Source: Planctomycetales bacterium
GTDB lineage: Bacteria; 4484-113; JAFGCY01
Assembly: GCA_022646745.1 (NCBI GenBank)
Contig: CP060262.1
Span: 30,001 to 62,000, forward strand
Length of the DNA: 32,000 bases
Direction of reading: 5' to 3'
Made by a program: the position numbers and the translations under genes. Shown here piece after piece: positions 4,171-25,353 of this stretch (position 1 is the stretch's first letter; every line of letters begins with the position of its first letter). Under the pieces are notes generated by a model, which was not told the origin of the DNA, made no database searches, and saw only the letters and a program-made list of their open reading frames with translations.

Positions 4171-5576
4171 TGGGAGACCTTCAGCCTGTCATTTGTCTGC
4201 AGCATGAGCTTCTGCCCATCCGCGCCATTGATCACCTTCAGGTCCTGCAGCTCCTCACCGAGGTATTCCAGGTAGACCAGCTCGCCGGCGCCGTTCCACA
4301 TCGCCACTGTGTCCGAGCGGTACTCCTCGCGGCCCTCGATCAGGCGTGCCACCAGCAGCTTGCGCCCGTCCAGCTCGATCACGCCAAGCCCCATGCCCAT
4401 CCCCCAGGAGAGCTGCATGTCATCCCAGCTCTCCGGTTTGGCAAGCCGCGTCTTCTCGCCAGTCTGCGGGTTCAGCAGCGACGAGCCGGTCAGGATCTCC
4501 GCAAAGCCGTCCCCGTTGAGGTCGGCACACAGTGAAGGCGGGCCGGCCAGCGAGTTGTCCGACAGCCCGGGCACTTCCACCGGCTCCTGCCCCATCCCGC
4601 AGGCCATCACGCGTCCGCCGTAGGGTACGTTAGGGTCGTACAGCGGGGCCAGCAGCTCATCCTTGCCATCGTTGTCAATGTCTCCGCTGGCCATCTCCAT
4701 CAGGCTGATCGCCTCCTTCGGCTGCCAGACCAGCTTGCCCTTGCGCCCATAGGCCAGGACTTCAGGGACGTACTGCGGCCCGTAGTTCATCAGGATCAGC
4801 TCAGTATGCCCGTCGCCATTGACGTCCGTGCCGGAAGCGTTGCCCATGTCAATGTTGCCATCCAGTTCCGCGATCCGCTCGCCGCTCGTGCTGAGCACCA
4901 GTGTCTTGTACTCCTCCGCGCCGCTTTCGTCCTGCGTGAAGTTGTTCCAGTCCGTGGCGAGGAACTCGCCTATGCCGTCCCCGTCGTAGTCCCAGATCGC
5001 GGTTGCCATCAGCTGCTGGTTCGGGTCGAGCTTCAGCTCCTGCTCGCTGCCATCGAGCTGCACCAGCCACTGCACATCCTGCGACACCAGCAGCTCATCC
5101 TCGGGGTCAGAATCGAGGTTGCCGGCGAGCACCATCGAGTACAGGCCGTCCACGCTCTCGAAGTTGACCACGTCCTTCCAGGCCAGCGCCTTGCCGACCG
5201 GCACACCCTTGTCATGCAGCTCCATCGGGCGCAGCATCTGCAGCTGCGACTCCAGCATCATCTCGATCGAGGCGATGTCCATCGAGCCGACCATTCCGTC
5301 GGCGAAGCCCTTGTCCATGCCGGACTCCTCCAGCAGCTGGCGGTCCTCGGCGCTGAGCTTCTGCCACATCGCGTCCACTTCCTGCTGCGTGGCCGGAGTG
5401 CCCATCCCCGGCGCGGCGGCCGGTTGCTGGTTCTGGGCCTGGTTCTGGTTGTTGCTGAAGCCGTTGCTCAGCCCCTTGCCCGCCTGGTCCAGCAGGTCGC
5501 AGGATCCAAGCAGGCCAATGGCCAGTACCGCGAGCGTGGCAATTGCCAGCCTGCCGATCACCTTGAGCGCCGGCAT
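4167..5576 (-). CDS. FG-GAP/VCBS-like beta-propeller lipoprotein, paralog D
   Basis: The ORF track extends to 5828, but the first 84 codons contain no signal peptide. ATG 5576 gives MPALKVIGRLAIATLAVLAIGLLGSC (lipobox). ATG 5648 is an alternative start. The protein shows MWQKLSAEDRQLLE, GNLDSDPEDELL, WDYDGDGIGEFL, TDVNGDGHTELI, GDIDNDGKDELL, ADLNGDGFAEIL and the C-terminal SDTVAMWNGAGELVYLEY. Confidence 0.8.
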   Translation of the reverse strand: MPALKVIGRLAIATLAVLAIGLLGSCDLLDQAGKGLSNGFSNNQNQAQNQQPAAAPGMGTPATQQEVDAMWQKLSAEDRQLLEESGMDKGFADGMVGSMDIASIEMMLESQLQMLRPMELHDKGVPVGKALAWKDVVNFESVDGLYSMVLAGNLDSDPEDELLVSQDVQWLVQLDGSEQELKLDPNQQLMATAIWDYDGDGIGEFLATDWNNFTQDESGAEEYKTLVLSTSGERIAELDGNIDMGNASGTDVNGDGHTELILMNYGPQYVPEVLAYGRKGKLVWQPKEAISLMEMASGDIDNDGKDELLAPLYDPNVPYGGRVMACGMGQEPVEVPGLSDNSLAGPPSLCADLNGDGFAEILTGSSLLNPQTGEKTRLAKPESWDDMQLSWGMGMGLGVIELDGRKLLVARLIEGREEYRSDTVAMWNGAGELVYLEYLGEELQDLKVINGADGQKLMLQTNDRLKVSQ

Positions 5577-5668
5577 GCCGGCCAGTCTTGCATCAGTCTT
5601 CAAGTCCCTGCCTCCCGTACCGCCCGCTATGCCCGGCGGCTGATCCATTCTAACCAATGGCGCAGATA

Positions 5669-7306
5669 TCAGGGCGAGATGAGCAGGCGCGACTGGGTCA
5701 GCACGGCGAGACGCTGGCGGCCGCCATCCCTGACCACCGCGATTGAATGGAGCTTCTCCCCAAAGCGCTCGCAATACAGAAGCCTGCCCTGCATGTCCCA
5801 TATCCCGAGTGAGTCCGACCACATGCATCGCTCATCCACCATTGCCACCAGCACCGGCCGACCCCCGAAGTTCCATGCCACTACCTTGCCTCCGAACAGG
5901 TTGTCAAGCACCATGTACCTGGCGTCCGGAATCAGCTCCAGTGGAACGCCCTCGCCACCATCCAGTTCACGGATGCTGTTGTCAATCAGCAGTTCATCGC
6001 GCCCATCGGCATCGAAATCCGCCAGCACGGGCCGATTGTTGTCGCTTAGCCATGCGTCGTTTTCAACGGGCAGTTTGACGGGCTGCCATTTCCCCAGCTC
6101 CAACACTTGCAGGTAGCTGTATTGTTGATCGTCTGCTTCTGGGTTCGTGCGGCAGATCAGCTCATCCGTACCATCGGCGTCAATGTCACTGACCCACTGG
6201 AAACCATTGCCGGGGCTGTCCCCGCTGTCCAGCAACTCACCGGCGGTGGACCAAATCCAGTACATGTAATGCAGCGGGTCGCTCAGTTGCAGCGAAGTAT
6301 TTGCTGTCCCCACAAGGTCCTGCACACCATCGCCGTTGAAATCACCGCTCTGGAAGAAAATGGCATGCATCTCCACGCATGGAATATCAGTACTGCTGCC
6401 ATCCAGCTCATACACCGCAAGCAGCGAACGTCCGGCACGCTCCTCCTCGCTCAGTCCGTGGATCAACCTGGCAACAAGCTCAAGCTGGCCATCCCCGTCG
6501 AAGTCATATGATGTACCCTGCAGGGAAAACAACCTTTGCGCACTTTCCGCCCAATCGAGTTTCCTGTTCGATCCATTCAGTCTGACAAGTGTGAGCTGCT
6601 GGAATCCATCATTCAGCAGCAGTTCGTCCTGGCGCGGTTCACCCTCAAAGTTTCCACTATCAACTGTCTTGCCGAAGTCATCCGATGACTTCATTTCATA
6701 CAGCGTTTTCCATGTGATGGCGCTGCCCCGGGTCACTGCCGCTGGCCGGACCAGCAGTTCCCGCTGGTCGCGCACCTTGCCCTCGATCTCACGGTAGATC
6801 AGTTCGTAGTCGTCAGAGTGCTCCTGCACCAGCTCGGATATGTAATCAACCACAGTGCGCGGGCTGTCAGCCCTGCGGTTCAGCTCCCGGGCGTAATTGA
6901 CAAGATCCTCAGATGAGAAGTCCGAAGTCAGCTGCTCCATCAGTTCCGGGTATTGTTGCCACAGCAGGTCCGCCTGGAATTCCATTGCCGCCTGCCTGCG
7001 CTCTTTCGCAGCTTCCTCCGGCCCGCCATTCATATACCACTGCTCCGTGGCACCCACTCCCAGATTCAGGCCGCTTCGCAGCTTCTCAGTGGCTATTGCC
7101 AGGCGCTGTGGCAGTTCCTCTGCCGTAAAGCGATGTGTCCGTTGCGCTGGGATTCCATCCCCATCCGGGCGGTCCCCGGTGTCTTCAGCAGTGGAACTGG
7201 TGTTGAGACGCTGGAGCATGAACATAGCAAGCAGCCCGACTGCCGCCGCAATCAGCAGCAGCTCAAGCCAGATCCGCCAGCGATTCTTTCCCGTCCCCAC
7301 GGCCAT
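5669..7306 (-). CDS. FG-GAP/VCBS-like beta-propeller protein, paralog E (N-terminal membrane anchor, longer helical N-domain)
   Basis: ORF track gives 545 aa with an ATG start. The TM anchor is WRIWLELLLIAAAVGLLAMFML. Repeats are GNFEGEPRQDELL, YDFDGDGQLELV, GDFNGDGVQDLV, SDIDADGTDELI and ADFDADGRDELL. The C-terminus carries SDSLGIWDMQGRLLYCERF. Confidence 0.85.
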   Translation of the reverse strand: MAVGTGKNRWRIWLELLLIAAAVGLLAMFMLQRLNTSSTAEDTGDRPDGDGIPAQRTHRFTAEELPQRLAIATEKLRSGLNLGVGATEQWYMNGGPEEAAKERRQAAMEFQADLLWQQYPELMEQLTSDFSSEDLVNYARELNRRADSPRTVVDYISELVQEHSDDYELIYREIEGKVRDQRELLVRPAAVTRGSAITWKTLYEMKSSDDFGKTVDSGNFEGEPRQDELLLNDGFQQLTLVRLNGSNRKLDWAESAQRLFSLQGTSYDFDGDGQLELVARLIHGLSEEERAGRSLLAVYELDGSSTDIPCVEMHAIFFQSGDFNGDGVQDLVGTANTSLQLSDPLHYMYWIWSTAGELLDSGDSPGNGFQWVSDIDADGTDELICRTNPEADDQQYSYLQVLELGKWQPVKLPVENDAWLSDNNRPVLADFDADGRDELLIDNSIRELDGGEGVPLELIPDARYMVLDNLFGGKVVAWNFGGRPVLVAMVDERCMWSDSLGIWDMQGRLLYCERFGEKLHSIAVVRDGGRQRLAVLTQSRLLISP

Positions 7307-7340
7307 ATATGTATCCTAGCGCAGTGCCCGGCCAGGCTGC

Positions 7341-8546
7341 TCAGTCCACCACGGGCAATTCCGCCCTGCGCAGCTGCCCATCCACCCCCTGCAGGATGAG
7401 CACGGGTTGACTGCCATCGCTGACAACAAACAGGTGTCGCATCGGCTGCTTAAAGGTCCTGCGATAGACAATCCTGCCCTGCGCGTCCCAGATGAGCACG
7501 GTATCCTTTTCCATGTCCGAGACCGACTCGCCGACCAGTGCTGCCAGCGCAAACTGCCCGTCAATTTCCAGTTCACTGTACTCACTGCCGATATCAAACA
7601 CTATGAACTGCGCGGTCCAGTCCGCTGGACGCTCCAGCTCCATCACCGGCCCTGCAAGTGACAGCACCTTCAACTGGTTCGTCAGGATCTCAGCCTTGCC
7701 ATCCCCGTCCATGTCCGCGCAGTAGACCGCGTTGCCCCAGTGCTCCGCATCCTGCAGCTCAGCTATCTGCACAGGATCCTGCTCCATTCCGAAAACCCTT
7801 GAGTTGGGAGCATTGGACGCCAGGGCCTGGCGCGAAATGCCGAGCACTTCCTCGCGACCATCGCCATCCACATCCCCGACCGCCGGTACCGAGATTGAAT
7901 GCAGGTCAGGCTCATTCCAGAGCGAATTGCCGCTGCCGTCAATTGCATTCACCGTGTTGCCAACTCCCTCTGCATCCGGGATCGCCACCAGCAATTCCCG
8001 GCTGCCATTTCCGTCTATATCAACCAGGTTGCGGCTGAGCAGGGGTTTGCCTTCGAATTCCATGATTGCATGTCCCGAGAGGTCCACTACAGACATTTCT
8101 GACAGCAGCCTGCCGCTTGCGGCATTTCTGATGAGTTCGTACCTGACAACGACGTACTCACTCACGCCATCTCCATCACTATCCCACAGGCAGTCGACGG
8201 CCTTGTTGTCATATCCGATCAGGTTGGAATTCACGTACACTCCATCCAGGTCGTAGATCCGGTAATGGTCCCACAACAGCAGCAACTCGTCTGCCGAATC
8301 AGAATCAAGGTTGCCCGGCAGGAATGTTACGAGGTCCAGCATGGGAGGTCCGGCGTCGATAGCCACCCCCATTTCCTGCCAGGCGAGTTTCTCCAGCCTG
8401 CCCGTCAGATTGCCAGCTGACTTTCCACCGGTGTTGCGTTCCGTGCTGTCCCCGCTGCCCCTGTTGCATGAAACGAGCAGCACGAGCAACAATGCTGTAA
8501 TCACGCTGAAGTTTCCTGTCCAGCACATTTGCAGAGAACCGTCCAT
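7341..8546 (-). CDS. FG-GAP/VCBS-like beta-propeller lipoprotein, paralog F (first gene of the tandem run)
   Basis: ORF track gives 401 aa. The signal is MDGSLQMCWTGNFSVITALLLVLLVSC (lipobox LVSC); ATG 8528 is an alternative start. Repeats are GNLDSDSADELL, WDSDGDGVSEYV, VDIDGNGSRELL, GDVDGDGREEVL and ADMDGDGKAEIL. The C-terminus carries KDTVLIWDAQGRIVYRRTF. Confidence 0.85.
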   Translation of the reverse strand: MDGSLQMCWTGNFSVITALLLVLLVSCNRGSGDSTERNTGGKSAGNLTGRLEKLAWQEMGVAIDAGPPMLDLVTFLPGNLDSDSADELLLLWDHYRIYDLDGVYVNSNLIGYDNKAVDCLWDSDGDGVSEYVVVRYELIRNAASGRLLSEMSVVDLSGHAIMEFEGKPLLSRNLVDIDGNGSRELLVAIPDAEGVGNTVNAIDGSGNSLWNEPDLHSISVPAVGDVDGDGREEVLGISRQALASNAPNSRVFGMEQDPVQIAELQDAEHWGNAVYCADMDGDGKAEILTNQLKVLSLAGPVMELERPADWTAQFIVFDIGSEYSELEIDGQFALAALVGESVSDMEKDTVLIWDAQGRIVYRRTFKQPMRHLFVVSDGSQPVLILQGVDGQLRRAELPVVD

Positions 8547-9025: not shown

Positions 9026-10558
9026 ATGAGTGAGACACAGACAATGAGTGAGGCAGCACCCCACGTACGCATCCGCGCCATCGGCCCCGGGCATCTCGGG
9101 CAGCGCGTGCAGATCCGCGGCTGGCTGGCCAACAAGCCCGGCGGCAAGGGCCGTTACTTCCTCTGGCTGCGCGACGGCAGCGGCATCATCCAGGCCGTCG
9201 CCGAGCAGGAGAAGTCCAGCCCCGAGGACTGGGAGGCCGTGGAGAGCATCGGGCTCGAAAGCAGCATCATCGTGGAGGGCATCGTCAAGGCGCACCCCAG
9301 GAACGAAGGTGAGTTCGAGCTGGACTTCGCCGGCATCAAGGTGCTGCAGGCCGTCAGCGACTACCCGATCACCAAGAAGGAGCATGGCACCGAGTTCCTG
9401 ATGAAGCACCGCCACCTCTGGCTGCGCGGCCGCCGCCAGAGCGCGATCCTGCGCATCCGTGCGGAGGTGCACAAGGCCTGGGCGGACTTCTTCTACGATC
9501 GCGGCTTCTTCCGGGTGGACACCCCGATCTTCACGCCCAACGCCTGCGAGGGCACCACGACGCTGTTCGAGGTGGACTACCACGGCGACACCGTCTACCT
9601 CTCGCAGTCCGGCCAGCTCTACAACGAGGCGGACATCGGCGCGCTCGGGCAGGTCTACTGCTTCGGGCCGACCTTCCGTGCGGAGAAGAGCAAGACCCGC
9701 CGCCACCTGCTGGAATTCTGGATGCTGGAGATGGAGGCCGCGTTCTACGACTTCGATGACAACATCCGCTTCCAGGAGGAGATGATCGCGTTCACGGTCA
9801 GCCGCATCCTCGAGCGTTGCAGTGCCGAGCTGAAGGAGCTCGGGCGCGACCCGGAGAAGCTGCGCCCGGCCACGCAGACGCCCTATCCGCGCCTGCGCTA
9901 CGGCGATGCGATCGAGCTGATCAACAAATCGCGGGTGGCGATCCTGATGGAACAGCGCGGCCTGTCCGAGGAGAAGGCGCTGGAACTGCTGTACAGCGGC
10001 AAGGCGACCTTCAGCGACGACACCTATGATGACGACGCGGAGAAGACCCGCAAGCTTGAGCCATTCCGCTGGGGCGACGACTTCGGCGCGCCGGACGAGG
10101 CCGCGATCAGTGCGCAGTACGACCGCCCGGTGTTCGTTTCCAACTTCCCGACGGAGATCAAGGGCTTCTACTTCAAGCAGGATGAGGAAGCGGACGGCAG
10201 CCTGCGTGTGGACCCGGTGTTTGCCGCGCTGCCAGACGACATGAAGCTGCCCGGCATGAGCGGGCATACCGTGCAGGGTGCGGACTGCATCGGGCCGGAG
10301 GGCGCAGGCGAGATGATCGGCGGCAGCCAGCGCGAGGACAACTTCGAGCGCCTGATGGAGAACATCGAGCACCACCAGCTGCCGCTGGACTTCTTCCAGT
10401 GGTACCTCGACACACGGCGTTATGGCAACGTGCCTCACAGCGGCTTCGGCATCGGCATGGAGCGCTTCGTGGCCTGGGTGGCGGGCGGCAGCGACACCCC
10501 GGTGCACATCCGCGAGGTGATCACATTCCCGCGCATGCTGCACCAGTTCGAGCCCTAG
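9026..10558 (+). CDS. asnS: Asparagine--tRNA ligase (class IIb), with two insertions
   Basis: ORF track gives 510 aa. AsnRS-type motif 2 is GPTFRAEKSKTRRHLLEFWMLEMEAAF. Also present are GEMIGGSQRE, RRYGNVPHSGFGIGMERFVAWV and IREVITFPR. Confidence 0.93.
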   Translation: MSETQTMSEAAPHVRIRAIGPGHLGQRVQIRGWLANKPGGKGRYFLWLRDGSGIIQAVAEQEKSSPEDWEAVESIGLESSIIVEGIVKAHPRNEGEFELDFAGIKVLQAVSDYPITKKEHGTEFLMKHRHLWLRGRRQSAILRIRAEVHKAWADFFYDRGFFRVDTPIFTPNACEGTTTLFEVDYHGDTVYLSQSGQLYNEADIGALGQVYCFGPTFRAEKSKTRRHLLEFWMLEMEAAFYDFDDNIRFQEEMIAFTVSRILERCSAELKELGRDPEKLRPATQTPYPRLRYGDAIELINKSRVAILMEQRGLSEEKALELLYSGKATFSDDTYDDDAEKTRKLEPFRWGDDFGAPDEAAISAQYDRPVFVSNFPTEIKGFYFKQDEEADGSLRVDPVFAALPDDMKLPGMSGHTVQGADCIGPEGAGEMIGGSQREDNFERLMENIEHHQLPLDFFQWYLDTRRYGNVPHSGFGIGMERFVAWVAGGSDTPVHIREVITFPRMLHQFEP

Positions 10559-10849: not shown

Positions 10850-10897
10850 GCCAGACTATCGTCTGGCCTCCCCGCCCGGCTTGTGCCGGACCTCCTA
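10850..10897 (-). repeat. REP-like unit in reverse orientation abutting the stop of paralog G
   Basis: The minus strand reads GTG TAG GAGGTCCGGCACAAGCCGGGC. A hairpin GCCAGAC-nnnn-GTCTGGC follows at 10850-10867. Confidence 0.8.
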
Positions 10898-12451
10898 CAC
10901 TCCTGCCAGCAGCCTCGTATCCGTCACCACATACAGCCGCCTGCCATCCTCCCCCGTGAGGATGTCATTCACCTGTTCACCGAAATGCTCCATGTACACC
11001 AGCTTGCCGCTGCTGTCCCACAGCCCGAGCGTATCCGAGCGGTTGTCATCGTAATCCTGCACCAGCAGGGCTGCCAGCAGGCGCTCCCCGTCGCGCTGCC
11101 AGAGCACGACCTGCGGGCGCGGCTGCCGGTGTGCCGTGGGCAGCATGTAGCCCTCCGGGAACTCCAGCTCCACCGTATCGCTGTTCCAGCTCAGGTAGAC
11201 ATGCCCGGAACTGACCAGGTCCACCCGGCCGTCGCCATTGATGTCAACGAGTGCCAGGATCGGGTCAACGTCGCGCTGCCCGCTGGCGGACAGCACATCC
11301 TGGTCCTCCTGATCGATGCCGACGAACAGCTGGTCAAAGGCATTGGTCTTCGTCTCCGATGGCCGCTTGATCAGCAGCTCATCCCTGCCGTCGCCATCCA
11401 CATCCCCCACCATGATGTCATCCATGTTGGAACACTGCGTATTGAAGATCTCGCCACCGGCCTGCTCTATTGCATAGAGCGTCTTTTCCATCAGGAATGC
11501 CGTGTTATTCCGGTCCGCTGTCTGGTTGAGCTTGTAGCACAGCAGCTCCGGTAGTCCATCGCCATCCATGTCCAGCTCCGGCAGGCGCATGCTCCAGGCA
11601 GTTCCCGGAGTATGGGCAAGAATCTCCCCATCCAGCCCGCGCAGCACTCCGCTGTCTCCCGTATATAAACGCCCACCTTCCTTTGCATTGGCGGGATCAT
11701 AATCCAGCAGTTCATCCACGCCATCACCATCGTAATCAAATGCTTCAAGCAACGCCACCAGATCAAGGCCGGGTGTCTGCAAAATGCTGCCGTCCTGATT
11801 TCGGAATTCAATTCCGCGGTACTGAATTGCCACTTCCTCCTCTGGGTCATCATCAAAGTTTCCGGGGAAGACAACGTATCGCCGGTAACCTGGTCCGGAC
11901 TGCTGTTTCTCATGCTCCTCTACTACCTGCCACTCCACCGCATCTCCACGATCCACATTCGCTTCTCCGGCCACCAGCGGCTTGTTGCGATTTAAAGCCT
12001 GCTGCATCGCATCAGCAACATATGCCTTGTCAAACAGTTGGCCCTGTGTACGGCGCTGAAGAATCCACTGCTCGCGTGTCAGGCCATTTTGCTTGGTGAT
12101 CTGCTTTCGCATCTTCTCATCCAGCTTCTCCCAGGCTCCCTCCGGGTCTGAGTATTCGCTGTAGCGATCCCATTCCCTCTTGCCATTCAGGTTCCTGGTC
12201 AGCAGCTCCCGGTCCTCCTCACTCAGCGCATTCCACAGCTCGTCAATCTCAGCCTGGGTGACCGGATGGCTACCGGCTTTGGCTGTCGCCATCCCTTCTC
12301 CGGCGATCACCGGCGCCCCACTTTCACTGACGCCTACCACCACCGGATCATCATCAGCCTGCTGGCAGGCAGCACACAGCAGGCAGGCCTGCATTGCCAG
12401 TGCCAGCATGGCCGCCAGCGCCAGCCGATCCAATCTCCCCGGATGTCCCAT
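10895..12451 (-). CDS. FG-GAP/VCBS-like beta-propeller protein, paralog G (separated from A-F by asnS)
   Basis: The ORF track starts at GTG 12502. ATG 12451 lies 9 nt downstream of a GGAGG and gives MGHPGRLDRLALAAMLALAMQACLLCAAC. The protein shows ELWNALSEEDRELL, GNFDDDPEEEV, FDYDGDGVDELL, LDMDGDGLPELL, GDVDGDGRDELL, VDINGDGRVDLV and the C-terminal SDTLGLWDSSGKLVYMEHF. Confidence 0.8.
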   Translation of the reverse strand: MGHPGRLDRLALAAMLALAMQACLLCAACQQADDDPVVVGVSESGAPVIAGEGMATAKAGSHPVTQAEIDELWNALSEEDRELLTRNLNGKREWDRYSEYSDPEGAWEKLDEKMRKQITKQNGLTREQWILQRRTQGQLFDKAYVADAMQQALNRNKPLVAGEANVDRGDAVEWQVVEEHEKQQSGPGYRRYVVFPGNFDDDPEEEVAIQYRGIEFRNQDGSILQTPGLDLVALLEAFDYDGDGVDELLDYDPANAKEGGRLYTGDSGVLRGLDGEILAHTPGTAWSMRLPELDMDGDGLPELLCYKLNQTADRNNTAFLMEKTLYAIEQAGGEIFNTQCSNMDDIMVGDVDGDGRDELLIKRPSETKTNAFDQLFVGIDQEDQDVLSASGQRDVDPILALVDINGDGRVDLVSSGHVYLSWNSDTVELEFPEGYMLPTAHRQPRPQVVLWQRDGERLLAALLVQDYDDNRSDTLGLWDSSGKLVYMEHFGEQVNDILTGEDGRRLYVVTDTRLLAGV

Positions 12452-12514
12452 TTGCCGCAGCCTCCGGCTTGCATATTTACTACACATCGTAGTATATACC
12501 ACAAATTGATGAGG

Positions 12515-16985: not shown

Positions 16986-17142
16986 TTGCCATCCCTCCCG
17001 TTGTGACTGTGCACGATATTGAAATGTATAACACAGCCTGCGCCTCCGGGCCCGCCCTTCATGTCAGCATGCTAATGTTAAACCCCAATGAAACCGGTGG
17101 AGCTGGGGCCGTCTTATCCCGCCGGTGCAGGAGAAGCCTGGC

Positions 17143-18114
17143 ATGCATGACATATTCAGCCTGCCCCCCGAGGGCTACCCGCAGGAACTGCTGTCCCTGC
17201 GCAGCGAGGTCATTTCGCGCACGCTTGCCGGCCATATCGACTCCGCCTATGAAATGTACCAGTTCGAGCTGGAGCGCCTGAAGGAGCTGAGCATCCGCGT
17301 GTTCGAGCTGCCGCGCGAGCACTTCGAGCTGGAGCACCGTCTCTCGCAGCTGGACTACGCGAAGGACAGCGCTGAGATGGAAAGCATCATGCAGCAGATG
17401 GAGCAGCTGAAGCTCGCCGCCGGCTTCCCGCAGGAGCGCATTGACGACCCGATGGGGGCCGGCAAGCCCGCCGAGCTGCGTGAGATCGAGGAACGGATGC
17501 AGCAGGCCGCCGAGCGCGCCGACATGGCGGAAAGCGTGCGCCTGTCCCAGCAGTGGCTGGAGCGGATGCGCTTCTACGGTTACCCGCAGCCCGGCATGGA
17601 GCGGCAGGAGCAGGCCTACCAGGCCTTCCTCGAACAGGAGGAGGAGCTCAACCGGCAGGTCCCGCCGGAGTACCTCGCCACCATGCGCTCGCTGGCCATG
17701 GCGCTGTACCGCGGCAACATGGATGAGGTGATGCGCCAGCACGAGCAGCAGATCGAGATCGCCCAGTGCCTCGGGATCAACGTGCAGCGCATGTCCCGGG
17801 AGTACTTTGAGCTGCAGCACCGCATCAGCAAGGCCGCCCGCCGCAACGACCAGGCCGAGCTGGCCCAGCTCCAGCAGGAGCTGGAGGAGCTGCAACCCGC
17901 CGACCAGCCCGTGATGGAGATGTTCGTCGACCCCTCAGGCGTGATGGGCCTGCCCCCGGAGTACGCCGAACTGGCCCGCGCCTGTGCCGAGGCCTTCGAG
18001 AACGGAGATGAGGCGGAGGCCCTGCGGCTCAGCCAGCAGATGCAGAAACTGCTGGAAAGCAGCGGCAATATCTACAACATCATGAACATCATTGAATCGG
18101 AGCCGGAAGGCTGA
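17143..18114 (+). CDS. Acidic all-helical cytoplasmic protein with internal repeats (unknown family)
   Basis: The ORF track starts at GTG 17125. ATG 17143 lies about 7 nt downstream of GGAGAAG. The sequence is Glu/Gln/Leu-rich. Internal duplication is seen in REHFELEHRLSQL versus REYFELQHRISKA, and three segments open with PPEGY / PPEY / PPEY. Confidence 0.7.
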   Translation: MHDIFSLPPEGYPQELLSLRSEVISRTLAGHIDSAYEMYQFELERLKELSIRVFELPREHFELEHRLSQLDYAKDSAEMESIMQQMEQLKLAAGFPQERIDDPMGAGKPAELREIEERMQQAAERADMAESVRLSQQWLERMRFYGYPQPGMERQEQAYQAFLEQEEELNRQVPPEYLATMRSLAMALYRGNMDEVMRQHEQQIEIAQCLGINVQRMSREYFELQHRISKAARRNDQAELAQLQQELEELQPADQPVMEMFVDPSGVMGLPPEYAELARACAEAFENGDEAEALRLSQQMQKLLESSGNIYNIMNIIESEPEG

Positions 18115-18173: not shown

Positions 18174-19964
18174 GTGGAACAGGACCAACAGCCGCGGGAG
18201 AACGGGGGCGAACAGCAGGCAGCCCCTTCCGCAGTGCAGGCACATTCCAAAGGCCAGGGCAACGGCAGGCACAACGGCCAGAAGGATGATCCTCGTGTGC
18301 GCCTGCTGCTGGCCAAGCTGCTGGCCACCCTGACCGGCATGATCATCGGCATGGCGATCACGGCAGTGGTCAGCTCAAATCTGCTGCCGGAGCAGCAGGA
18401 AAAGGTCAGCAGCGCGCAGGAAGAAATCAACGAGGCGAACAAGAGCATCGCCCAGATGAATCCGGAATGGCAGAAGGCATATGATGAACGGACTGCCGCC
18501 AAGGAATCATATGACGACCAGGTTGATGCTGACCTGCTTGAGCTGTTCACCAAGGGATTCAACAACCTCCGGTCAAGCACCGGCAGCAGTACCAAGGAGA
18601 TGCTGGATTCCCTTGAGTCCGATCCGGACCGGCTGATCCTTGAACTATACGGGATCCTGACGGAAGACCAGGCGAAACCCGCCGAGGACAGGACCATTGA
18701 CGATGCTGTCCGCAGCAAGTTCCTCAGCAAGTTCCATTTCGCGGGCGGCAGTCCTGCAGCGGCTGATGACCAGGCTGAGGCACAGGCCAGTGCGGTACCG
18801 GCGACATCCCTGGAGTTCGACCCGGACCTGAATACCAGCGCCCTGCTCTTCCTGGAACTGCGCCGCAAGGATTATGAGTACATCCAGGTTGACAACGAAT
18901 ACTCAAAGTTCCAGCTGTCCGTCACGCTGAACCAGGAAGTGATTTCGGTCACGGAGCGGTTCATCGGCCAGATTGACCTGATCAGCCTGGCGATCATCTT
19001 CATCTGTACGATCCTTGGCTACCTGACCCATCCCATAGCTGAGCGGCTGATCAAGCGCATCGCCCAGAACTGGCGCGAGTTTGATTTCGGGCCGGGACAG
19101 CGCAGCACGCCCGCCGCCATCGGCTTCTTCGCCGGCATGCTGCTGGCAATTGTCGTGCTGCTGCTGCTGTTCACCGTGATCCCGCTTGAGCAGTCGATCA
19201 TGGACCAGAGCTGGTTCAAGGTGCTGGTCGGCACGGTCATCGTGCTGATCATCAGCGGCATCGGGGCCATCACCGGCGCAACCTACTTCGGCCCGCGCGA
19301 GGACCCGGACCTCGTGGACGAATACATCGAATTCCGCCGCAATGCCGCGCCGAAGCTGCTCGACACATCAGTGATCATCGACGGGCGGATCTACGAGATT
19401 GCCCAGACCCGCTTCCTCGACGGCTACCTCGTGGTCACCGGCTCCGTGCTGCGTGAGCTGCAGACGCTGGCTGACAGCGCGGATGAGCGCAAGCGCATCA
19501 AGGGCCGCAGCGGGCTGGAGCTGGTGCAGAAGATGCAGGATGACAACCGCGTCGACCTGCGGATCTTCGATGACAGCCAGTTCGACAGCCAGGCCAATGG
19601 CGTTGACGACCAGCTGATGATCGTCTGCCGTGAGATGGGGGCACAGGTCGTCACCAATGACTACAACCTCAACCGCGTGGCGGCGATCCTCAACGTCAAG
19701 GTGCTCAACATCAATGCACTTGCCAACTCCGTCAAGACCCGGCACCTGCCGGGCGACGAGATCGTGATCAAGATCACCGACCGCGGCAAGCAGAAGGGAC
19801 AGGGCGTCGGCTACCTCGAGGACGGCACGATGGTCGTGATCGAGGACGGTGGCGGCTTCATCGGCCAGAACAAGCTGGTGCGCATCACGAGCGTCTCGCA
19901 GACCGCACAGGGCCGCCTGCTGTTCGCACGGGTGGACCTTGCCAACGGAGAGGGCGATGGCTGA
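18174..19964 (+). CDS. yacL: YacL-like PIN + TRAM domain integral membrane protein with a long N-terminal insertion
   Basis: ORF track gives 596 aa with a GTG start, which is uncertain. The PIN region is LLDTSVIIDGRIYEIAQTRFLDGYLVV..VDDQLMIVCREMGAQVVTNDYNLNRVA. The TRAM-like tail is GDEIVIKITDRGKQKGQGVGYLEDGTMVVIEDG..LVRITSVSQTAQGRLLFARV. It lies upstream of ispD, as in the known yacL-ispD-ispF synteny. Confidence 0.8.
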   Translation: MEQDQQPRENGGEQQAAPSAVQAHSKGQGNGRHNGQKDDPRVRLLLAKLLATLTGMIIGMAITAVVSSNLLPEQQEKVSSAQEEINEANKSIAQMNPEWQKAYDERTAAKESYDDQVDADLLELFTKGFNNLRSSTGSSTKEMLDSLESDPDRLILELYGILTEDQAKPAEDRTIDDAVRSKFLSKFHFAGGSPAAADDQAEAQASAVPATSLEFDPDLNTSALLFLELRRKDYEYIQVDNEYSKFQLSVTLNQEVISVTERFIGQIDLISLAIIFICTILGYLTHPIAERLIKRIAQNWREFDFGPGQRSTPAAIGFFAGMLLAIVVLLLLFTVIPLEQSIMDQSWFKVLVGTVIVLIISGIGAITGATYFGPREDPDLVDEYIEFRRNAAPKLLDTSVIIDGRIYEIAQTRFLDGYLVVTGSVLRELQTLADSADERKRIKGRSGLELVQKMQDDNRVDLRIFDDSQFDSQANGVDDQLMIVCREMGAQVVTNDYNLNRVAAILNVKVLNINALANSVKTRHLPGDEIVIKITDRGKQKGQGVGYLEDGTMVVIEDGGGFIGQNKLVRITSVSQTAQGRLLFARVDLANGEGDG

Positions 19965-20733
19965 GTTCAGCGCGATCGTACTCGCCGGTGGGAAGGCCTC
20001 GCGCTTCGGCGGCACTGATGTCTACAAGGAAAAGCTCGGCGGCAAGTCGATGCTGTCACATTCAATTGACCTCTGCGAGGCGCACGAGCACTGCCGCGAG
20101 GTGCTTGTCAGCGTCTCCCCGGCGATCCGCTCCTGGATCGAAGGCGATGTGCTGACCTTCTCCGGCTCCAAGATGAGACTCATGGATGCACAGGCAGACC
20201 GCCAGTCCTCCGCACTGGCAGCAGCCAGGCTTGCTAGCAGTGACCTGCTCGTGGTCCTCGATGGCAACCGCCCCTACAGCGGCGATGAGCTGCTGGAGCG
20301 CGTGCTGCGCGAGGCGGCCGAGGGCACGGGCTGCGCACCATGCCTGGACTGCACCGATCCGCCGGCCAGCCGCGGTGACAAGGTGGCCGGTGACGGTGGC
20401 GACACCGATTTCTTCGGTGCGAAGAAGACAGACTCATACGCCCGCAGCATGCTGCGGGGCAACCTGCCGGCGGCTGAGGCAGTGCTGCTGCAGCATCCGC
20501 AGGCCTTCCTGCGTGAGGACTACATCTCAAAGGCTGAAGCTGCCGGTGACCTTACGCGCTTCGCTGACGACAGCGAGGTGTTCATGGCCGGCGGTGGTGA
20601 CATTGTGCTCGTGCCCGGCCGCAGCGGCAACTTCCGCATTGTCAGCCATGATGACCTGCGCATCATGCAGAAGATCATGGGCGGCCCTTCAAAGAAGAAG
20701 CAGGACGGCAAGTACGGGGGCCTCGGTTGGTAG
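19957..20733 (+). CDS. ispD: IspD-like nucleotidyltransferase (2-C-methyl-D-erythritol 4-phosphate cytidylyltransferase family, divergent)
   Basis: The ORF track starts at 19849 inside yacL. ATG 19957 overlaps the yacL stop by 8 nt. The protein shows MAEFSAIVLAGGKASRFGG (P-loop), VLDGNRP (compare HDAARP), QHPQAF and GNFRIVSHDDLRIM (compare NIKVTRPEDL). Confidence 0.7.
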   Translation: MAEFSAIVLAGGKASRFGGTDVYKEKLGGKSMLSHSIDLCEAHEHCREVLVSVSPAIRSWIEGDVLTFSGSKMRLMDAQADRQSSALAAARLASSDLLVVLDGNRPYSGDELLERVLREAAEGTGCAPCLDCTDPPASRGDKVAGDGGDTDFFGAKKTDSYARSMLRGNLPAAEAVLLQHPQAFLREDYISKAEAAGDLTRFADDSEVFMAGGGDIVLVPGRSGNFRIVSHDDLRIMQKIMGGPSKKKQDGKYGGLGW

Positions 20734-21848
20734 CAGCGGGCAGGAATGACTCCGGCCTGCGCATCGGCCAGGGCGTAAGCTCACAGCGCATCTCCAGTGG
20801 CAAGGCGGCCGCACTGGCCGGCATGAGCGTGGAGCTGCAGGTCGGCGATGCCAGCAGCGACGGAGACGTTGCCAGCCAGGCGGTGCTCGCTGCCCTGATG
20901 ACGGCACTGTCCCTGCCGGGCATCGACACCCTGTTCCCCGCTGACGACACGGAGGCCCTGCGCGAAAACAGCCTGGTGCTGCTCAGCCAGACCGTCAGCG
21001 CCCTCAAGCGCCGCCAGCTGGACTCCGTCAGCAGCGCCAGCATCAGCCTGCACCTGGCGGACTGGCAGGCGATCTCCGCCTACTGGGAGGAGATGTGCGG
21101 CATGCTGGCCAGTGCGCTGCAGGTCGAGCGTGACTGCATCGGCCTCGGCATCGGTCCAGTACCGGATGGGATGGACGGCGACTGCATGTACGCCGTTGCC
21201 TCCGTGCTCTGCCAGCGCCGCAACCCATTTGCTACTGCACCGAAGGCTGCCGCCCCGAGCCGTGCCGAGCGCACCGCCGAGGCGGCCCGCAGCCTGTTTG
21301 ACAACCCACAGCCGGCCAGGGCATCAGAGCCTGAGCCGGACATCCTGGAGGACCCGACATTGCCAAGGAGAGCACGCGAGTTCGAACAGGCGGTGCGCAG
21401 CGGCCTGCCGCCCCTGCCCCGCGCCCAGGCACCTGAGCCAGGCAGCACGCTTTACGTCTACAGTGACGGCGCCAGCCGCGGCAACCCCGGCAAGGCGGCC
21501 ACCGGTTTCGTGGTGATGGACGGGGCCGGCCTGCTGGTGCATGAGGGCGGCACCCGGCTGGAAGACTGCACCAACAACCAGGCGGAGTACCGCGCGATCA
21601 TCGAGGCGCTGGAATGGGTTGAGCGCGAACTCGGGCACGACTTCCACCTGGAGTGCCGGCTGGACAGCGAACTTGTCGTCAAGCAGTTAAAGGGCGAGTA
21701 CAAGGTCAAGAAGGAAGAACTGAAGCCGCTGTCAATGAAGGCCATGAACCTGCTGATGTACTTCACGTCCTTCGAGCTCAGGCATGTGCCGCGCGCCGAG
21801 AACGCCCGCGCCGACGCAATGGCCAACGCGGTGCTTGACAACAGCTGA
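20727..21848 (+). CDS. Fusion protein: degenerate IspF-like domain (aa ~11-164) + linker + RNase HI domain (aa ~240-373)
   Basis: ORF track gives 373 aa. The TTG start overlaps the ispD TAG (TTGGTAG). The N-terminal domain aligns to IspF: LRIGQGVSSQ..ASSDGDVASQAVLAAL..GIDTLFPADD. The C-terminal domain shows YSDGASRGNPG, NNQAEYRAIIEAL, LDSELVVKQL and ENARADAMAN, which is the DEDD set of RNase H. Confidence 0.78.
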   Translation: MVAAGRNDSGLRIGQGVSSQRISSGKAAALAGMSVELQVGDASSDGDVASQAVLAALMTALSLPGIDTLFPADDTEALRENSLVLLSQTVSALKRRQLDSVSSASISLHLADWQAISAYWEEMCGMLASALQVERDCIGLGIGPVPDGMDGDCMYAVASVLCQRRNPFATAPKAAAPSRAERTAEAARSLFDNPQPARASEPEPDILEDPTLPRRAREFEQAVRSGLPPLPRAQAPEPGSTLYVYSDGASRGNPGKAATGFVVMDGAGLLVHEGGTRLEDCTNNQAEYRAIIEALEWVERELGHDFHLECRLDSELVVKQLKGEYKVKKEELKPLSMKAMNLLMYFTSFELRHVPRAENARADAMANAVLDNS

Positions 21849-23963
21849 TCAGGCCAGCACGGGCAGCGGCGGGCTGTACAGCGCGATCAGCGCTTCCTGT
21901 ACCGCGACCCGTTCCTCATCCTCGCCAGGCATACGCCTGATGTAGCTGCCGTCCGGCTGCATGTCCCATGCTGAGCTGTTGTCAACGAAGTAGACCTGCA
22001 GGATGCGCTCAAGCTCCGCTGTGCATTCCTCGTCACGCACGGGTGCCACTGTCTCCACGCGCTTGTCCAGGTTGCGCTTCATCCAGTCCGCGCTGCCGAT
22101 GAAGAATTCCGGCTCTCCGGCATTCTCGAAACGGTAGATCCGGCTGTGCTCCAGGAAGCGGCCCAGCACGCTGCAGACGTGGATGTTGTCAGACAGGCCC
22201 GGCACACCGGCGCGCAGGCAGCACAGTCCGCGCACCACGAGGTGGATCGGCACCCCATCCAGTCCGGCTGCATACAGCTCACGGATGATGTCGGTGTCCT
22301 GCAGCTGGTTCATCTTGGCAACGATCCCGCTCGGGCGGCCCTCCCGCGCATGCTCCGCCTCCCGGCGGATCAGCTCGATGAAGTGGTCACGCATGTAGCG
22401 CGGTGCCACGAACAGCTTCCTGTAGTCGGTATGCGGATGCGCCCCGGTCAGCTCATTGAACACATTCAGCGCATCCTGGCAGATCGACTTGTTGGCGGTC
22501 AGCAGTCCGAGGTCCTCGTAGATCCGCGCCGTGCTCGTATGGTAGTTGCCGGTGCCGATGTGCACGTAGTTGCGCAGCGTGTCACCTTCCTCGCGTACCA
22601 CGAGCGCCATCTTGGAATGCGTCTTCAGCGCTTCCACGCCGTAGCTCACATGTGCCCCGGCGGCTTCCAGCATCCGGCCCCACTCGATGTTCGGCATCTC
22701 GTCGAAGCGCGCCGTGATCTCCACGCAGACCGCCACCTGCTTGCCCTGGCGTGCGGCCTCGACCAGTGCGGAGATGATCGGCGACTTGCTCGATGTGCGG
22801 TAGATCGTCAGCTTGATCGCCAGGGTGTGCGGGTCATTGACGGCGGCGCGGATGAAGCGCAGCACGGTAGTGTCGAAGCTCTGGTAGGGATGGTGCAGCA
22901 GGATGTCTCCCCTGCGGATCTCCGCGAACACCTCCTCGGGATTGCCACTGTCCAGCATTGACAGCCGCGGGTGGTTGACCGCGACATGCTCCGGCAGTCG
23001 GTGGCCCTCGATCGAGTCCGTCGGCAGGTTCAGCAGGTCGCTCTTGCCAAGCAGGCTCTCGCAGACGTAGATGTCGTCATCCGCAGCACCGAGCTGCTCA
23101 GCCAGCCAGCTCACCAGCTTGTCCGGCATGCTGTTCTGCACCTGCAGCCTGACAACACCCGCGAAACGCCGTGCCCGCAGTTCGTTCGTGACCTGGTCGA
23201 TGATGCTGCCCGGGATCACATCCTCACTCACGAGGTGCTCGCCGCCCGCATCCTCATTGTCGTCGCCATCAGCGCCACGGGTCACGCGGAAGGTGTAGAC
23301 CTCGATCGAGGCAGTTCCCGGGAACAGCTGGTCCAGGTTCTCGGAGATGATTTCCTCGATCAGCACAAGTCCGCGGCCTTCGGGCAGCACCACCCAGCGC
23401 GGGCGGTTGCCCGGCACCTTGATGCGCACGAAGCGCTTGCGGTCCTTCTTCGTGTCACGCACGCGCACCGCCAGGTTCAGGCCCTGGTTGGAGATGAATG
23501 GGAAAGGATGTTCGGCATCGACAGCCAGTGGTGTAAGCAAGGGCTTGATCTGCTCGTTGAAGTATTCGCGGCAGTAGGCCTTGCTTTCCTCATCAAGCTC
23601 GGCCACGCGCTGGAAGGGCAGCCCGGCCTCCGCCAGCGCAGCGGTGATCTCTCCGGACAGCATTGACTCCAGCCGGCTGATCTGGTTCAGCACCTCCTCG
23701 CGGCACTGCATCATCACCTCGACCGGTGAGCGGCCTTCGCTGGTGGTGGTGTCCCGGCTGCTGCGGATCATGCGCTTCAGGCCGCCGACGCGCTTCATGA
23801 AGAACTCGTCGTGCAGCACGCCCATGATGCCGGCGAACTTGACCCGTTCAAGCAGCGGCAAGCGGGGATCCTCCACGAATGCCAGCACCCTGTCCGCGAA
23901 GGACAGCCAGCTCAGGTCGCGGTTGAGGAAGATATCCAGCCCTTCCCGGATGTCGTAGTCCAT
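21849..23963 (-). CDS. ppk: Polyphosphate kinase 1
   Basis: ORF track gives 704 aa. The N-terminus FLNRDLSWLSFADRVLAFVEDPRLPLLERVKFAGIMGVLHDEFFMKRV is typical of PPK1. The length and tandem PLD-like C-domains also fit (HIGTGNYH, HSRIYRFEN). Confidence 0.93.
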   Translation of the reverse strand: MDYDIREGLDIFLNRDLSWLSFADRVLAFVEDPRLPLLERVKFAGIMGVLHDEFFMKRVGGLKRMIRSSRDTTTSEGRSPVEVMMQCREEVLNQISRLESMLSGEITAALAEAGLPFQRVAELDEESKAYCREYFNEQIKPLLTPLAVDAEHPFPFISNQGLNLAVRVRDTKKDRKRFVRIKVPGNRPRWVVLPEGRGLVLIEEIISENLDQLFPGTASIEVYTFRVTRGADGDDNEDAGGEHLVSEDVIPGSIIDQVTNELRARRFAGVVRLQVQNSMPDKLVSWLAEQLGAADDDIYVCESLLGKSDLLNLPTDSIEGHRLPEHVAVNHPRLSMLDSGNPEEVFAEIRRGDILLHHPYQSFDTTVLRFIRAAVNDPHTLAIKLTIYRTSSKSPIISALVEAARQGKQVAVCVEITARFDEMPNIEWGRMLEAAGAHVSYGVEALKTHSKMALVVREEGDTLRNYVHIGTGNYHTSTARIYEDLGLLTANKSICQDALNVFNELTGAHPHTDYRKLFVAPRYMRDHFIELIRREAEHAREGRPSGIVAKMNQLQDTDIIRELYAAGLDGVPIHLVVRGLCCLRAGVPGLSDNIHVCSVLGRFLEHSRIYRFENAGEPEFFIGSADWMKRNLDKRVETVAPVRDEECTAELERILQVYFVDNSSAWDMQPDGSYIRRMPGEDEERVAVQEALIALYSPPLPVLA

Positions 23964-24029: not shown

Positions 24030-24872
24030 TTAGCGTGAAGAGATGCGGTTATCCCCGCGAATCGCCGCCAGCCAGCCTCCCCGCGGCTGCAGCGGCATCT
24101 CCGGCTCGTAGGCTTCAGCCCAGGGACTGGGCAGCAGTCCGTCCACCAGGCCATCCACGAAGCTCGTGCCGACCAGGTCATACAGGAAGCCGTCATGCGG
24201 GCGTACCAGGTTGTCCGGATTCACCTTGAACTCGCCGAAGCGGAAGTCACCCGCCACATTGATCCCCTCCAGCCATTCCAGTGCGCGGCGCTGGCTGTCC
24301 GGTCCAACGATCTCGTCGCGTGCAATGCGCCCGACCAGGATCCGGCTGCGGCCGCGCTCGCTGAAGTGCGCCAGCTGCTCCATCTGGCTGCGGGTGCGCT
24401 CCGTGTCAAACATCCGCTGCAGGTAGTCAACCTCGCTGCGGCTGAGCACGATGTCCTGCGGCCGGGTTGTGCCGGCGAAGCTGGAGCCGATCGTCACCAG
24501 GCAGAGGTACTCCGGCGCGGCCTGCGGCACCAGCTTGGAGAGTTCCGTGATCACGTCCAGCGCCACGATCCCGCCGAAGCTGAAGCCGATGATCACCACA
24601 TTGCTGATCTCCGGTGAGATGTTGCGCAGCACCGTGCGGCACAGCGAGCGCATGTATGAGGAGTAGTTCGCGCTCTGCCCGAGCAGGATCTCCACCATGT
24701 CCGCCGGCTGCGAGAGGTGCAGCACATGCAGGTCAGGGCGGCGCTGGCGCAGGTGCGAGACGTACCATTGCCAGGAAATGTCCGGCGTCATGCTGCGCCA
24801 GGTCGCGCTGAAGATGCCGTCAACACAGACGACGAGGTCAGTCCCGGCTTGCCACTCGCTTGCGGCTCGCAT
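24030..24872 (-). CDS. Alpha/beta-fold hydrolase (lipase/esterase-like)
   Basis: The ORF track extends to 25043, overlapping ndk. ATG 24872 follows a GGAG about 9 nt upstream. The nucleophile-elbow motif is VVIIGFSFGG (GxSxG). Confidence 0.68.
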   Translation of the reverse strand: MRAASEWQAGTDLVVCVDGIFSATWRSMTPDISWQWYVSHLRQRRPDLHVLHLSQPADMVEILLGQSANYSSYMRSLCRTVLRNISPEISNVVIIGFSFGGIVALDVITELSKLVPQAAPEYLCLVTIGSSFAGTTRPQDIVLSRSEVDYLQRMFDTERTRSQMEQLAHFSERGRSRILVGRIARDEIVGPDSQRRALEWLEGINVAGDFRFGEFKVNPDNLVRPHDGFLYDLVGTSFVDGLVDGLLPSPWAEAYEPEMPLQPRGGWLAAIRGDNRISSR

Positions 24873-24897
24873 CACGGCTCCACTGGCCGCAGGTTGA

Positions 24898-25353
24898 TCA
24901 GCCCACCAGCCACTTGTCGGAGTCGCGCTCGTAGCCCACGATCTCCGCATCAGTGAAGTATACGCCGATCTCGAAGGCGGCGTTCTCATTGCTGTCGGAG
25001 GCATGCACCAGGTTGTTGGAGATGTCGAGGCCGAAGTCGCCACGGATCGTGCCGGGTGCAGCCTCGTTCGGACGGGTCGCGCCGACGATGCTGCGCACCT
25101 GGGTGATCACGTCCGGACCTTCCAGCACCATCGCCACCACCGGGCTGGAGCGGATGTACTGCACGAGCCCCTCGTAGAAGGGCTTGCCCTCATGCACGGC
25201 GTAATGCCGGCTGGCCTGTTCCTGGCTGACGCTGATCAGCTTCATCGCAGCCACGCGGAAGCCCTTGCGCTCGAAGCGGGCCAGGATCTCGCCGGCCAGG
25301 CCGCGCTGGACGGTGTCAGGTTTGAGCATCACGAATGTACGTTCCCACGCCAT
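24898..25353 (-). CDS. ndk: Nucleoside diphosphate kinase
   Basis: ORF track gives 151 aa. The protein shows ERTFVMLKPDTVQRGLAGEILARFERKGF, GATRPNEAAPGTIRGDFG and NLVHASDS. ACGGAGAA lies 6 nt upstream of the ATG. Confidence 0.96.
   Translation of the reverse strand: MAWERTFVMLKPDTVQRGLAGEILARFERKGFRVAAMKLISVSQEQASRHYAVHEGKPFYEGLVQYIRSSPVVAMVLEGPDVITQVRSIVGATRPNEAAPGTIRGDFGLDISNNLVHASDSNENAAFEIGVYFTDAEIVGYERDSDKWLVG

Follow-up and report, generated by a model that had tools for sequence, protein, structure and literature searches.

Contig CP060262.1 of an uncultured Planctomycetales bacterium (assembly GCA_022646745.1) was analysed over a stretch of 32,000 nucleotides (positions 30,001 to 62,000, forward strand), which we refer to as the window and in whose own coordinates all positions are given. 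It carries a three-gene unit that runs from a PIN-TRAM (YacL-like) putative RNase gene through an IspD-like gene to an open reading frame (ORF) in which two enzyme folds are joined. The N-terminal half has the fold of IspF, the 2-C-methyl-D-erythritol 2,4-cyclodiphosphate (MEcPP) synthase of the 2-C-methyl-D-erythritol 4-phosphate (MEP) pathway of isoprenoid synthesis; the C-terminal half is an RNase HI domain, and a two-part linker lies between them (Table 1). Neighbouring genes of the unit overlap by a few bases at their stop and start codons, which points to translational coupling. The TTG start codon of the fusion overlaps the stop codon of the IspD-like gene by 7 nt (TTGGTAG), and this start is confirmed by the orthologues, which have ATG or TTG at the equivalent position and share an N-terminus of the form 'MV..'.

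Table 1. Coordinates of the fusion gene, its parts and its neighbours in the window
Feature	Position	Strand	Remarks
Whole fusion ORF	20727..21848	+	373 aa, TTG start; pseudo-IspF, linker, RNase HI
Pseudo-IspF (YgbB-fold) domain, residues 11-160	20757..21206	+	Pfam YgbB, TIGR00151, alignments, Foldseek
Former Zn-ligand codon, S18	20778-20780	+	
Former Zn-ligand codon, Q20	20784-20786	+	
Former Zn-ligand codon, Q51	20877-20879	+	
Pro/Ala-rich variable linker, residues 161-208	21207..21350	+	low pLDDT, low identity
Family-specific conserved motif, residues 209-240	21351..21446	+	D..LP.RAR.FE.AV.S.LPPLP.A..P..G; predicted helix 214-225
RNase HI domain, residues 241-372	21447..21842	+	archaeal/Halobacterium type
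DEDD codon, D247	21465-21467	+	
DEDD codon, E287	21585-21587	+	
DEDD codon, D313	21663-21665	+	
DEDD codon, D363	21813-21815	+	
IspD-like gene	19954..20733	+	probable ATG at 19954; listed ORF from 19849
PIN-TRAM (YacL-like) putative RNase	18174..19964	+	Pfam PIN and TRAM; heads the three-gene unit
ppk1	21849-23963	-	convergent with the fusion gene
Glu/Gln-rich protein	17125-18114	+	329 aa; lies before the PIN-TRAM gene
FG-GAP/VCBS-repeat paralogues (six)	1313-8546 and 10895-12502	-	~400-550 aa each
Class II aminoacyl-tRNA synthetase	9026-10558	+	
Alpha/beta-hydrolase-like ORF	24030-25043	-	from first GTG
ndk	24898-25353	-	

The IspF half: a retained fold with a replaced active site

The assignment of the N-terminal half to the IspF fold, which a first-pass annotation had made from the letters of the window, is borne out by both profile and structure comparison. 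Residues 11-139 match the Pfam family YgbB at 59 bits (cut-off 26.7), and the best IspF in a sequence search of the PDB is that of Thermus thermophilus (1iv1, E=1e-8), while the ispF equivalog model of NCBIfam, TIGR00151, is matched at 47.7 bits and its cut-off of 116.45 is not reached. An AlphaFold2 (AF2) model, built on a 17-sequence alignment of the family, has a mean predicted local distance difference test score (pLDDT) of 81, with a confident prediction for each domain and disorder in the linker within residues 170-203, where pLDDT is below 50 at 170-178 and 187-203. Searched with Foldseek, the modelled N-terminal domain superposes on more than 40 IspF chains at a template modelling (TM) score of about 0.80.

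The active site was compared with that of E. coli IspF, using a reference sequence identical to that of PDB 1jy8. All three zinc ligands are replaced in the alignment (D8 by S18, H10 by Q20, H42 by Q51), as is H34, to which S43 corresponds. These are exactly the losses claimed by the first-pass annotation, and the alignment restores no Asp or His ligand. The replacements are not limited to the metal site. The substrate and second-metal positions D56-G58 read G-I-D and K104 is Ala; the phosphate-binding residues T132, T133 and E135 have become Gly, Pro and Pro; the loop 136-141 is shorter than in E. coli IspF; and the cavity residues R142 and E144 are also replaced. Out of 22 functional positions scored against the E. 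coli protein, five are retained in the window's fusion, compared with 12-22 in more distant, outgroup fusions, and the DGD motif (D45-G46-D47) is still present. On the strength of these alignments, the pseudo-IspF fold is predicted to be no longer able to bind the catalytic zinc or the substrate, 4-diphosphocytidyl-2-C-methyl-D-erythritol 2-phosphate.

The linker that follows is variable in its first part, with 25-37% identity among distant members of the family, and ends in a conserved motif (residues 209-240) in which R215, F219, L227, P229-L230-P231, A233, P236 and G239 are invariant. This motif was not seen in those outgroup fusions or stand-alone RNase HI relatives whose sequences were read. 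As the stand-alone relatives (about 210 aa) have unrelated N-terminal extensions, the motif does not appear to have been inherited from them.

The RNase HI half: an intact catalytic tetrad

Residues 242-368 match the Pfam families RVT_3 (61 bits) and RNase_H (37 bits), each with a score that exceeds the cut-off. The best PDB sequence match of the domain is the RNase HI of Halobacterium (4e19, E=1e-30, 47% identity), on which the AF2 model superposes in Foldseek at a TM score of 0.95 and a root mean square deviation of 1.1 Å; among the NCBIfam models, the C-terminal half comes closest to the Halobacterium-type RNase HI and to the RNase H half of Rv2228c. Residues D247, E287, D313 and D363 align with the DG, AEY, DS and AD motif positions of solved RNase HI structures and are invariant in all 39 fusions. 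We take them to be the catalytic DEDD tetrad, which had likewise been read as intact at the first pass. Type-1 RNases H cleave the RNA strand of RNA/DNA hybrids and, to judge from its conserved residues, the C-terminal half is apparently a working enzyme of this kind.

The subfamily is found in other arrangements as well. Many of the proteins P0130-P0136, P0140, P0150-P0157 and P0166-P0170 contain two to four archaeal-type RNase HI domains in tandem; in some of these the linkers are eukaryote-like and of low complexity, and some repeats have apparently degenerate catalytic residues.

Distribution of the family and conservation of gene order

A homology search recovered the two-domain architecture in 17 clusters (at 90% identity), down to 39% identity. 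An exhaustive profile search, which covered 1.84 billion representatives, returned nine clusters of the core family (at 50% identity). It also returned a more distant set of at least 14 IspF::RNase HI fusions (299-360 aa), in which an N-terminal IspF is again followed by a C-terminal RNase HI. In addition, a hand-made DNA signature of 58 bits was derived from the invariant P-L-P ... G..L..Y.DGASRGNPG stretch. It matches the window once, with 0 matches expected by chance, and it matches seven species-representative genomes, all of them uncultured metagenome-assembled genomes (MAGs) labelled 'bacterium', 'UBP7' or 'Planctomycetales bacterium'. One of these, L004 (HKST-UBA01), is 97-99% identical to the window across the fusion region; the source of HKST-UBA01 is saline activated sludge (PMC8495973), and the name HKST-UBA01 in PMC10839748 refers to another MAG, of the Nitrospinota. 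The label 'UBP7', borne by the nearest MAGs, is probably out of date: in a 2024 review the UBP7 of GTDB comprises genomes of 0.83-1.39 Mb with 36-53% GC, compared with a 4.1-Mb contig and about 62% GC here.

The PIN-TRAM, IspD-like and fusion genes follow one another in this order in every locus of sufficient length, namely L002-L006, L008 and L017-L019 together with the outgroups L009 and L011. The yacL-ispD-ispF position that the first-pass annotation had recognised is therefore a conserved one. The fusion ORF is found uninterrupted in independent NCBI, JGI, ENA and Logan assemblies and, being conserved across many genomes, is a single gene, as first described, rather than two genes joined by a frameshift. 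No unfused or N-domain-truncated natural form was found among the matches, the short ones ending at contig edges. Two candidates for an unfused form were rejected: P0129, a fragment at a contig edge whose sequence begins within the N-domain, and P0128, which is probably also truncated.

Intact fusions first, catalytic loss later

The fusions can be arranged by how much of the IspF active site they keep. The residues D8, H10, H42 and E135 are kept in 14 of 14 outgroup fusions, which retain 12-22 of the 22 functional positions. Within the core family, P0017 and P0125 retain 15-16 positions, all ligands included, P0007 and P0126 retain nine, and the window's protein and the remaining members retain 2-6. 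In a neighbour-joining tree of the RNase H domain, which is without bootstrap support and only suggestive, the core family is monophyletic, P0126 and P0017/P0125 branch basally and the dead forms make up one derived clade. Since the outgroup fusions and two basal core members keep all of the ligands, the fusion is judged to predate the catalytic loss, and the loss to be derived. On the simplest history, a bifunctional fusion in the ispDF operon was followed by a single loss of the IspF half on the stem leading to the window's clade. The replacements at functional positions of dead members differ from sub-lineage to sub-lineage, which argues for relaxed selection at these sites. By the same sequence comparisons, two features were gained by the core family before the catalytic loss: the conserved linker motif and a C-terminal tail on the IspD-like protein.

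The two outgroup fusions whose contigs were examined (P0168 and P0138) lie in the classical context mcsB-clpC-carD-(PIN-TRAM)-ispD-(ispF::rnh). In the outgroup locus L009 (11447-14086), a ligand-intact ispF::rnh fusion is followed directly by polA, which suggests that rnh was recruited from a replication/repair neighbourhood adjoining the ispDF operon.

Selection on the catalytically dead domain

Ratios of nonsynonymous to synonymous substitution rates (dN/dS, Nei-Gojobori) were calculated for the window against L002 and L006, comparisons that are unsaturated (dS ~0.6). The ratio is 0.20-0.24 for the pseudo-IspF domain, about 0.14 for the variable linker, 0.05-0.09 for the conserved linker motif and 0.04-0.07 for the RNase H domain, with 0.13 for ppk1 as a control. 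The dead IspF domain is under purifying selection. Its length and predicted fold are kept across members that are only about 40% identical. In the family alignments, the invariant or near-invariant residues of the N-domain are Gly, Ala or Leu, with the exceptions of D47 and R12. As there is no new conserved polar constellation, it is the fold that appears to be conserved, and not a new active site. The domain is acidic, with an isoelectric point of 4.2 in the window and 4.2-5.5 in nearly all dead or partial members; a role as a nucleic-acid-binding (hybrid-binding) module was rejected for this reason.

The IspD-like neighbour and the supply of isoprenoids

The product of the gene upstream has also moved away from its family. 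It matches the ispD model TIGR00453 at 72 bits (cut-off 181) and the best IspD in the PDB at 35.7 bits, and the TIGR00453 score falls from 166 and 140 bits in the outgroups through 104 bits to the 72 bits of the window. Aligned with E. coli IspD (verified against 1i52), the window's protein keeps the P-loop Arg, K27 and the DxxRP motif and has Arg in place of K213. K213 is kept in the IspD-like proteins of L001, where the partner is the intact P0017, and of L003; in that of L008 the P-loop is deleted and K213 is replaced by Ser. At its C-terminus the window's protein carries an additional conserved tail, ...KKKQDGKYGGLGW. In the core family (L001-L008) the IspD-like proteins end in KKxKDxKYGGLGW (positions 20682-20733 in the window), and the KYGGLGW tail is absent from the two outgroup IspDs examined (L009, L011), although part of its conservation may reflect the overlap with the start of the fusion (TTGGTAG/ATGGTAG) and the ribosome-binding site. 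The IspD-like gene is degenerating in parallel with the IspF half, yet at a dN/dS of 0.16-0.22 it is under purifying selection.

Other isoprenoid genes were sought near the fusion. Apart from the IspD-like gene, none is present in the window and its flanks, and no further MEP gene lies within 10 kb on either side of four other family members. A GHMP kinase of 305 aa is encoded 3 kb downstream of the fusion in the dead-fusion genome L018; it matches models of phosphomevalonate and mevalonate kinases and has no match to IspE. On long contigs its homologues (55-59% identity) are the last gene of full mevalonate (MVA) operons, in the order FMN_dh-family protein, 3-hydroxy-3-methylglutaryl-CoA (HMG-CoA) reductase::GHMP kinase, mevalonate diphosphate decarboxylase (MVD), L018-type kinase; the FMN_dh family is that of type-2 isopentenyl diphosphate isomerase. 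Thus at least one dead-fusion lineage, that of L018, probably makes its isoprenoids through mevalonate.

The fusion of HMG-CoA reductase (HMGR) with a GHMP (mevalonate) kinase is of about 765 aa in L020 (6705-9002) and L021 (6670-8835). In both it sits within an operon of FMN_dh, HMGR::kinase, MVD and phosphomevalonate kinase (PMK), and it occurs in at least 100 clusters from Zixibacteria, Calditrichota, Cloacimonadota-like and unclassified MAGs.

Why the fold may have outlived its chemistry

With a confidence only slightly better than even, we favour the view that the product of the gene is a working RNase HI carried by a pseudo-IspF scaffold, which is non-catalytic and probably trimerises, and that it derives from a bifunctional fusion. 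According to this hypothesis, a bifunctional IspF::RNase HI would have arisen in the classical yacL-ispD-ispF operon, and fusions with intact ligands are still found in further uncultured lineages as well as among the basal members of the core family. The window's clade would subsequently have lost MEcPP synthase activity, the upstream IspD decaying alongside, and the IspF fold would have been retained as something on which the RNase H half depends. The active sites of IspF, an obligate homotrimer, lie between subunits; with the chemistry lost, quaternary structure becomes the most economical reason to keep the fold. The homotrimer would then act as an oligomerisation scaffold that makes the RNase H trivalent, an arrangement that would fit purifying selection on a fold without a conserved polar site. 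The pseudo-IspF may also dock with dimers of the IspD-like protein, as in IspDF assemblies, and a candidate docking interface would consist of the linker motif LPERAR.FE.AV..KLPPLP and the IspD tail, both of them older than the loss. The analysis itself establishes what the domains are, that the ligands are lost and the DEDD residues intact, that fusion and gene order are conserved, in which order the events took place and that the dead domain is under purifying selection; we infer RNase H activity, trimerisation, partner docking and the replacement of the MEP pathway by another route. Going further, we regard it as possible, though less likely than not, that the physical coupling of IspF and RNase HI serves a function, the body of the IspF trimer belonging to a multivalent machine for the processing of hybrids that might also include the IspD-like protein and the PIN-TRAM RNase of the operon.

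Several observations weigh against the scaffold hypothesis. The predicted TM score (pTM) of the monomer model is only 0.45, so that the arrangement of the two domains is undefined. The pseudo-IspF domain is under a constraint 3-5 times weaker than that on the RNase H domain, and its role may accordingly be modest. The two basal members on which the order of events partly depends, P0017 and P0125, lack T132 as well as some of the GFxGRGEG loop and may not be active as IspF, and the tree that places them is the unbootstrapped one. No protein of the window's genome is among the matches listed for the L018 PMK or the HMGR::kinase queries, a negative limited by the fact that unfused enzymes would rank lower among those matches. 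Finally, there may be a second, canonical ispF elsewhere in the genome.

This last point is the core of another explanation, neofunctionalization of a paralogue. Here canonical ispD and ispF (or ispDF) genes elsewhere would keep the MEP pathway intact, while the operon copy specialised, with the PIN-TRAM RNase, as an RNA/DNA-processing module. Such a history would account for a PIN-TRAM, IspD-like and fusion unit that stays together with overlapping stop and start codons and with all three genes under purifying selection, for the gain of the IspD tail and linker motif ahead of the catalytic loss, and for the lack, among the matches listed, of an MVA gene belonging to the window's genome. However, no second ispF or ispD was seen in any locus examined (about 20 kb per genome), and the phosphomevalonate kinase of the MVA-operon family in L018 points to replacement of the pathway and not to duplication. 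We therefore consider this explanation rather doubtful, if worth keeping in view.

Selection on the fold would also be expected if the pseudo-IspF domain were a regulatory sensor, binding a small molecule and gating the RNase H allosterically. Candidate ligands would be CMP or CDP, MEcPP or, within the cavity of the trimer, an isoprenoid diphosphate. In IspF the contacts to cytidine nucleotides are made mostly by main-chain atoms, the E. coli enzyme binds isoprenoid diphosphates in its central cavity, and the fusion retains the DGD motif. Nevertheless, D56, K104, T132, T133, E135, R142 and E144 have all been replaced and the 136-141 loop has shortened; the replacements vary by sub-lineage, as expected of drift rather than re-tuning, and no polar cluster is conserved. 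A sensor role seems unlikely to us on this evidence.

Much less probable is that the N-domain is a neutral relic, functionless and kept only because its deletion would disrupt the expression or folding of the RNase H. Its evolution at 3-5 times the rate of the RNase H domain, with active-site positions drifting freely, is what would be seen in a relic, but a dN/dS of about 0.2 over 150 codons, close to that of the ppk1 control, is not, and neither is the retention of length and predicted fold at about 40% identity when no unfused or truncated natural form has been found. An artefact, in which a frameshift or an assembly chimera joins separate ispF and rnhA genes, can be dismissed, as it is refuted by the same ORF in NCBI, JGI, ENA and Logan assemblies and in seven species-representative genomes.

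Other genes of the locus

Downstream, the fusion gene and the convergent ppk1 gene are separated by 0 intergenic bases, with adjacent stop codons (21846-21851), which leaves no space for an intervening terminator. The ppk1 gene is also a neighbour of the fusion in L002, L004, L005, L006 and L017. The PIN-TRAM protein at the head of the unit is of 596 aa, compared with 356 aa in the outgroup L009, the difference being due to a long N-terminal extension with membrane-like segments. The Glu/Gln-rich protein encoded before it is probably a coiled coil, is without a Pfam family and shares 84-85% identity with its counterparts in L002 and L006.

Further away, five of the six FG-GAP/VCBS-repeat paralogues are arranged head-to-tail, and the class II aminoacyl-tRNA synthetase gene separates this array from the sixth. 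In the relatives L017 and L018 the fusion locus, too, has FG-GAP proteins next to it. The alpha/beta-hydrolase-like ORF, taken from its first GTG, overlaps ndk by 146 nt; its true start is probably further downstream, because the L017 orthologue is called at 281 aa.

Relation to known systems and implications

The fusion can be compared with several characterised proteins. With IspF (E. coli 1jy8, T. thermophilus 1iv1) it shares the fold, the operon position after ispD and, by way of the ligand-intact fusion relatives, common descent; it differs in being without the zinc-, phosphate- and cytidine-binding residues and in being joined to an RNase HI. With the archaeal-type bacterial RNases HI (4e19, LC11-RNase H1 3u3g, Sulfolobus tokodaii 3aly) it has the conserved DEDD residues in common, to which it adds an N-terminal extension of about 240 residues comprising the pseudo-IspF domain and the LPPLP-containing motif. 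In the bifunctional IspDF of Campylobacter jejuni (1w55), IspF is likewise one module of a fusion, and IspF trimers and IspD dimers form a higher-order assembly; in our case the IspD-like protein is encoded by a separate, overlapping gene in another frame, and a dead IspF is joined to a nuclease.

A precedent for the fusion of a metabolic enzyme with an RNase HI is provided by Mycobacterium tuberculosis Rv2228c, an RNase HI joined to a CobC-type acid phosphatase (3hst), whose RNase HI belongs to the same subfamily (E=1.7e-16). The acid phosphatase partner is reportedly active. Partner domain and domain order both differ, the RNase H being N-terminal in Rv2228c and C-terminal here. The Rv2228c-type model NF005567 is matched over model positions 4-133 of 378 only (110.9 bits, cut-off 326), and the CobC/histidine-phosphatase domain is absent. 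In the homology search, the same RNase HI subfamily was also found fused to HAD, NIF3, GNAT and PTPS domains.

A further comparison is with the ligand-intact fusions (P0135, P0137-P0149, P0153, P0168 and P0210; loci L009 and L011), which have the same architecture, an intact DEDD tetrad and, in the two examined, the same yacL-ispD context with a near-canonical IspD. Those that were read are without the LPERAR..LPPLP linker motif. Their existence qualifies the novelty that the first-pass annotation had seen in an IspF pseudoenzyme joined to RNase H. The fusion as such is not special to this locus, being present in at least 14 distant ligand-intact clusters and, in the two examined, in the same operon position; what is confined to one derived clade is the apparent death of the IspF half. 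On the other hand, the searchable literature yielded no account of an IspF that is a pseudoenzyme or is fused to RNase H, and this family of uncultured bacteria is undescribed there.

Source databases label the fusion proteins either 'MEcPP synthase' or 'ribonuclease HI'. The label '2-C-methyl-D-erythritol 2,4-cyclodiphosphate synthase' would wrongly credit these MAGs with a step of the MEP pathway in metabolic reconstructions. IspF is a target for antibacterial and antimalarial drugs and is treated as a dedicated, essential enzyme of that pathway. If its trimer is indeed part of a multivalent hybrid-processing machine, this would be the first fold of an MEP-pathway enzyme to be exapted as a pseudoenzyme scaffold in nucleic-acid metabolism. 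It would explain why the fold survived the loss of the MEP pathway, and would imply that IspF is moonlighting in the ligand-intact fusions. The natural series from intact through partly decayed to dead fusions enables tests of why a fold outlives its chemistry, and of whether oligomerisation alters the function of RNase HI.

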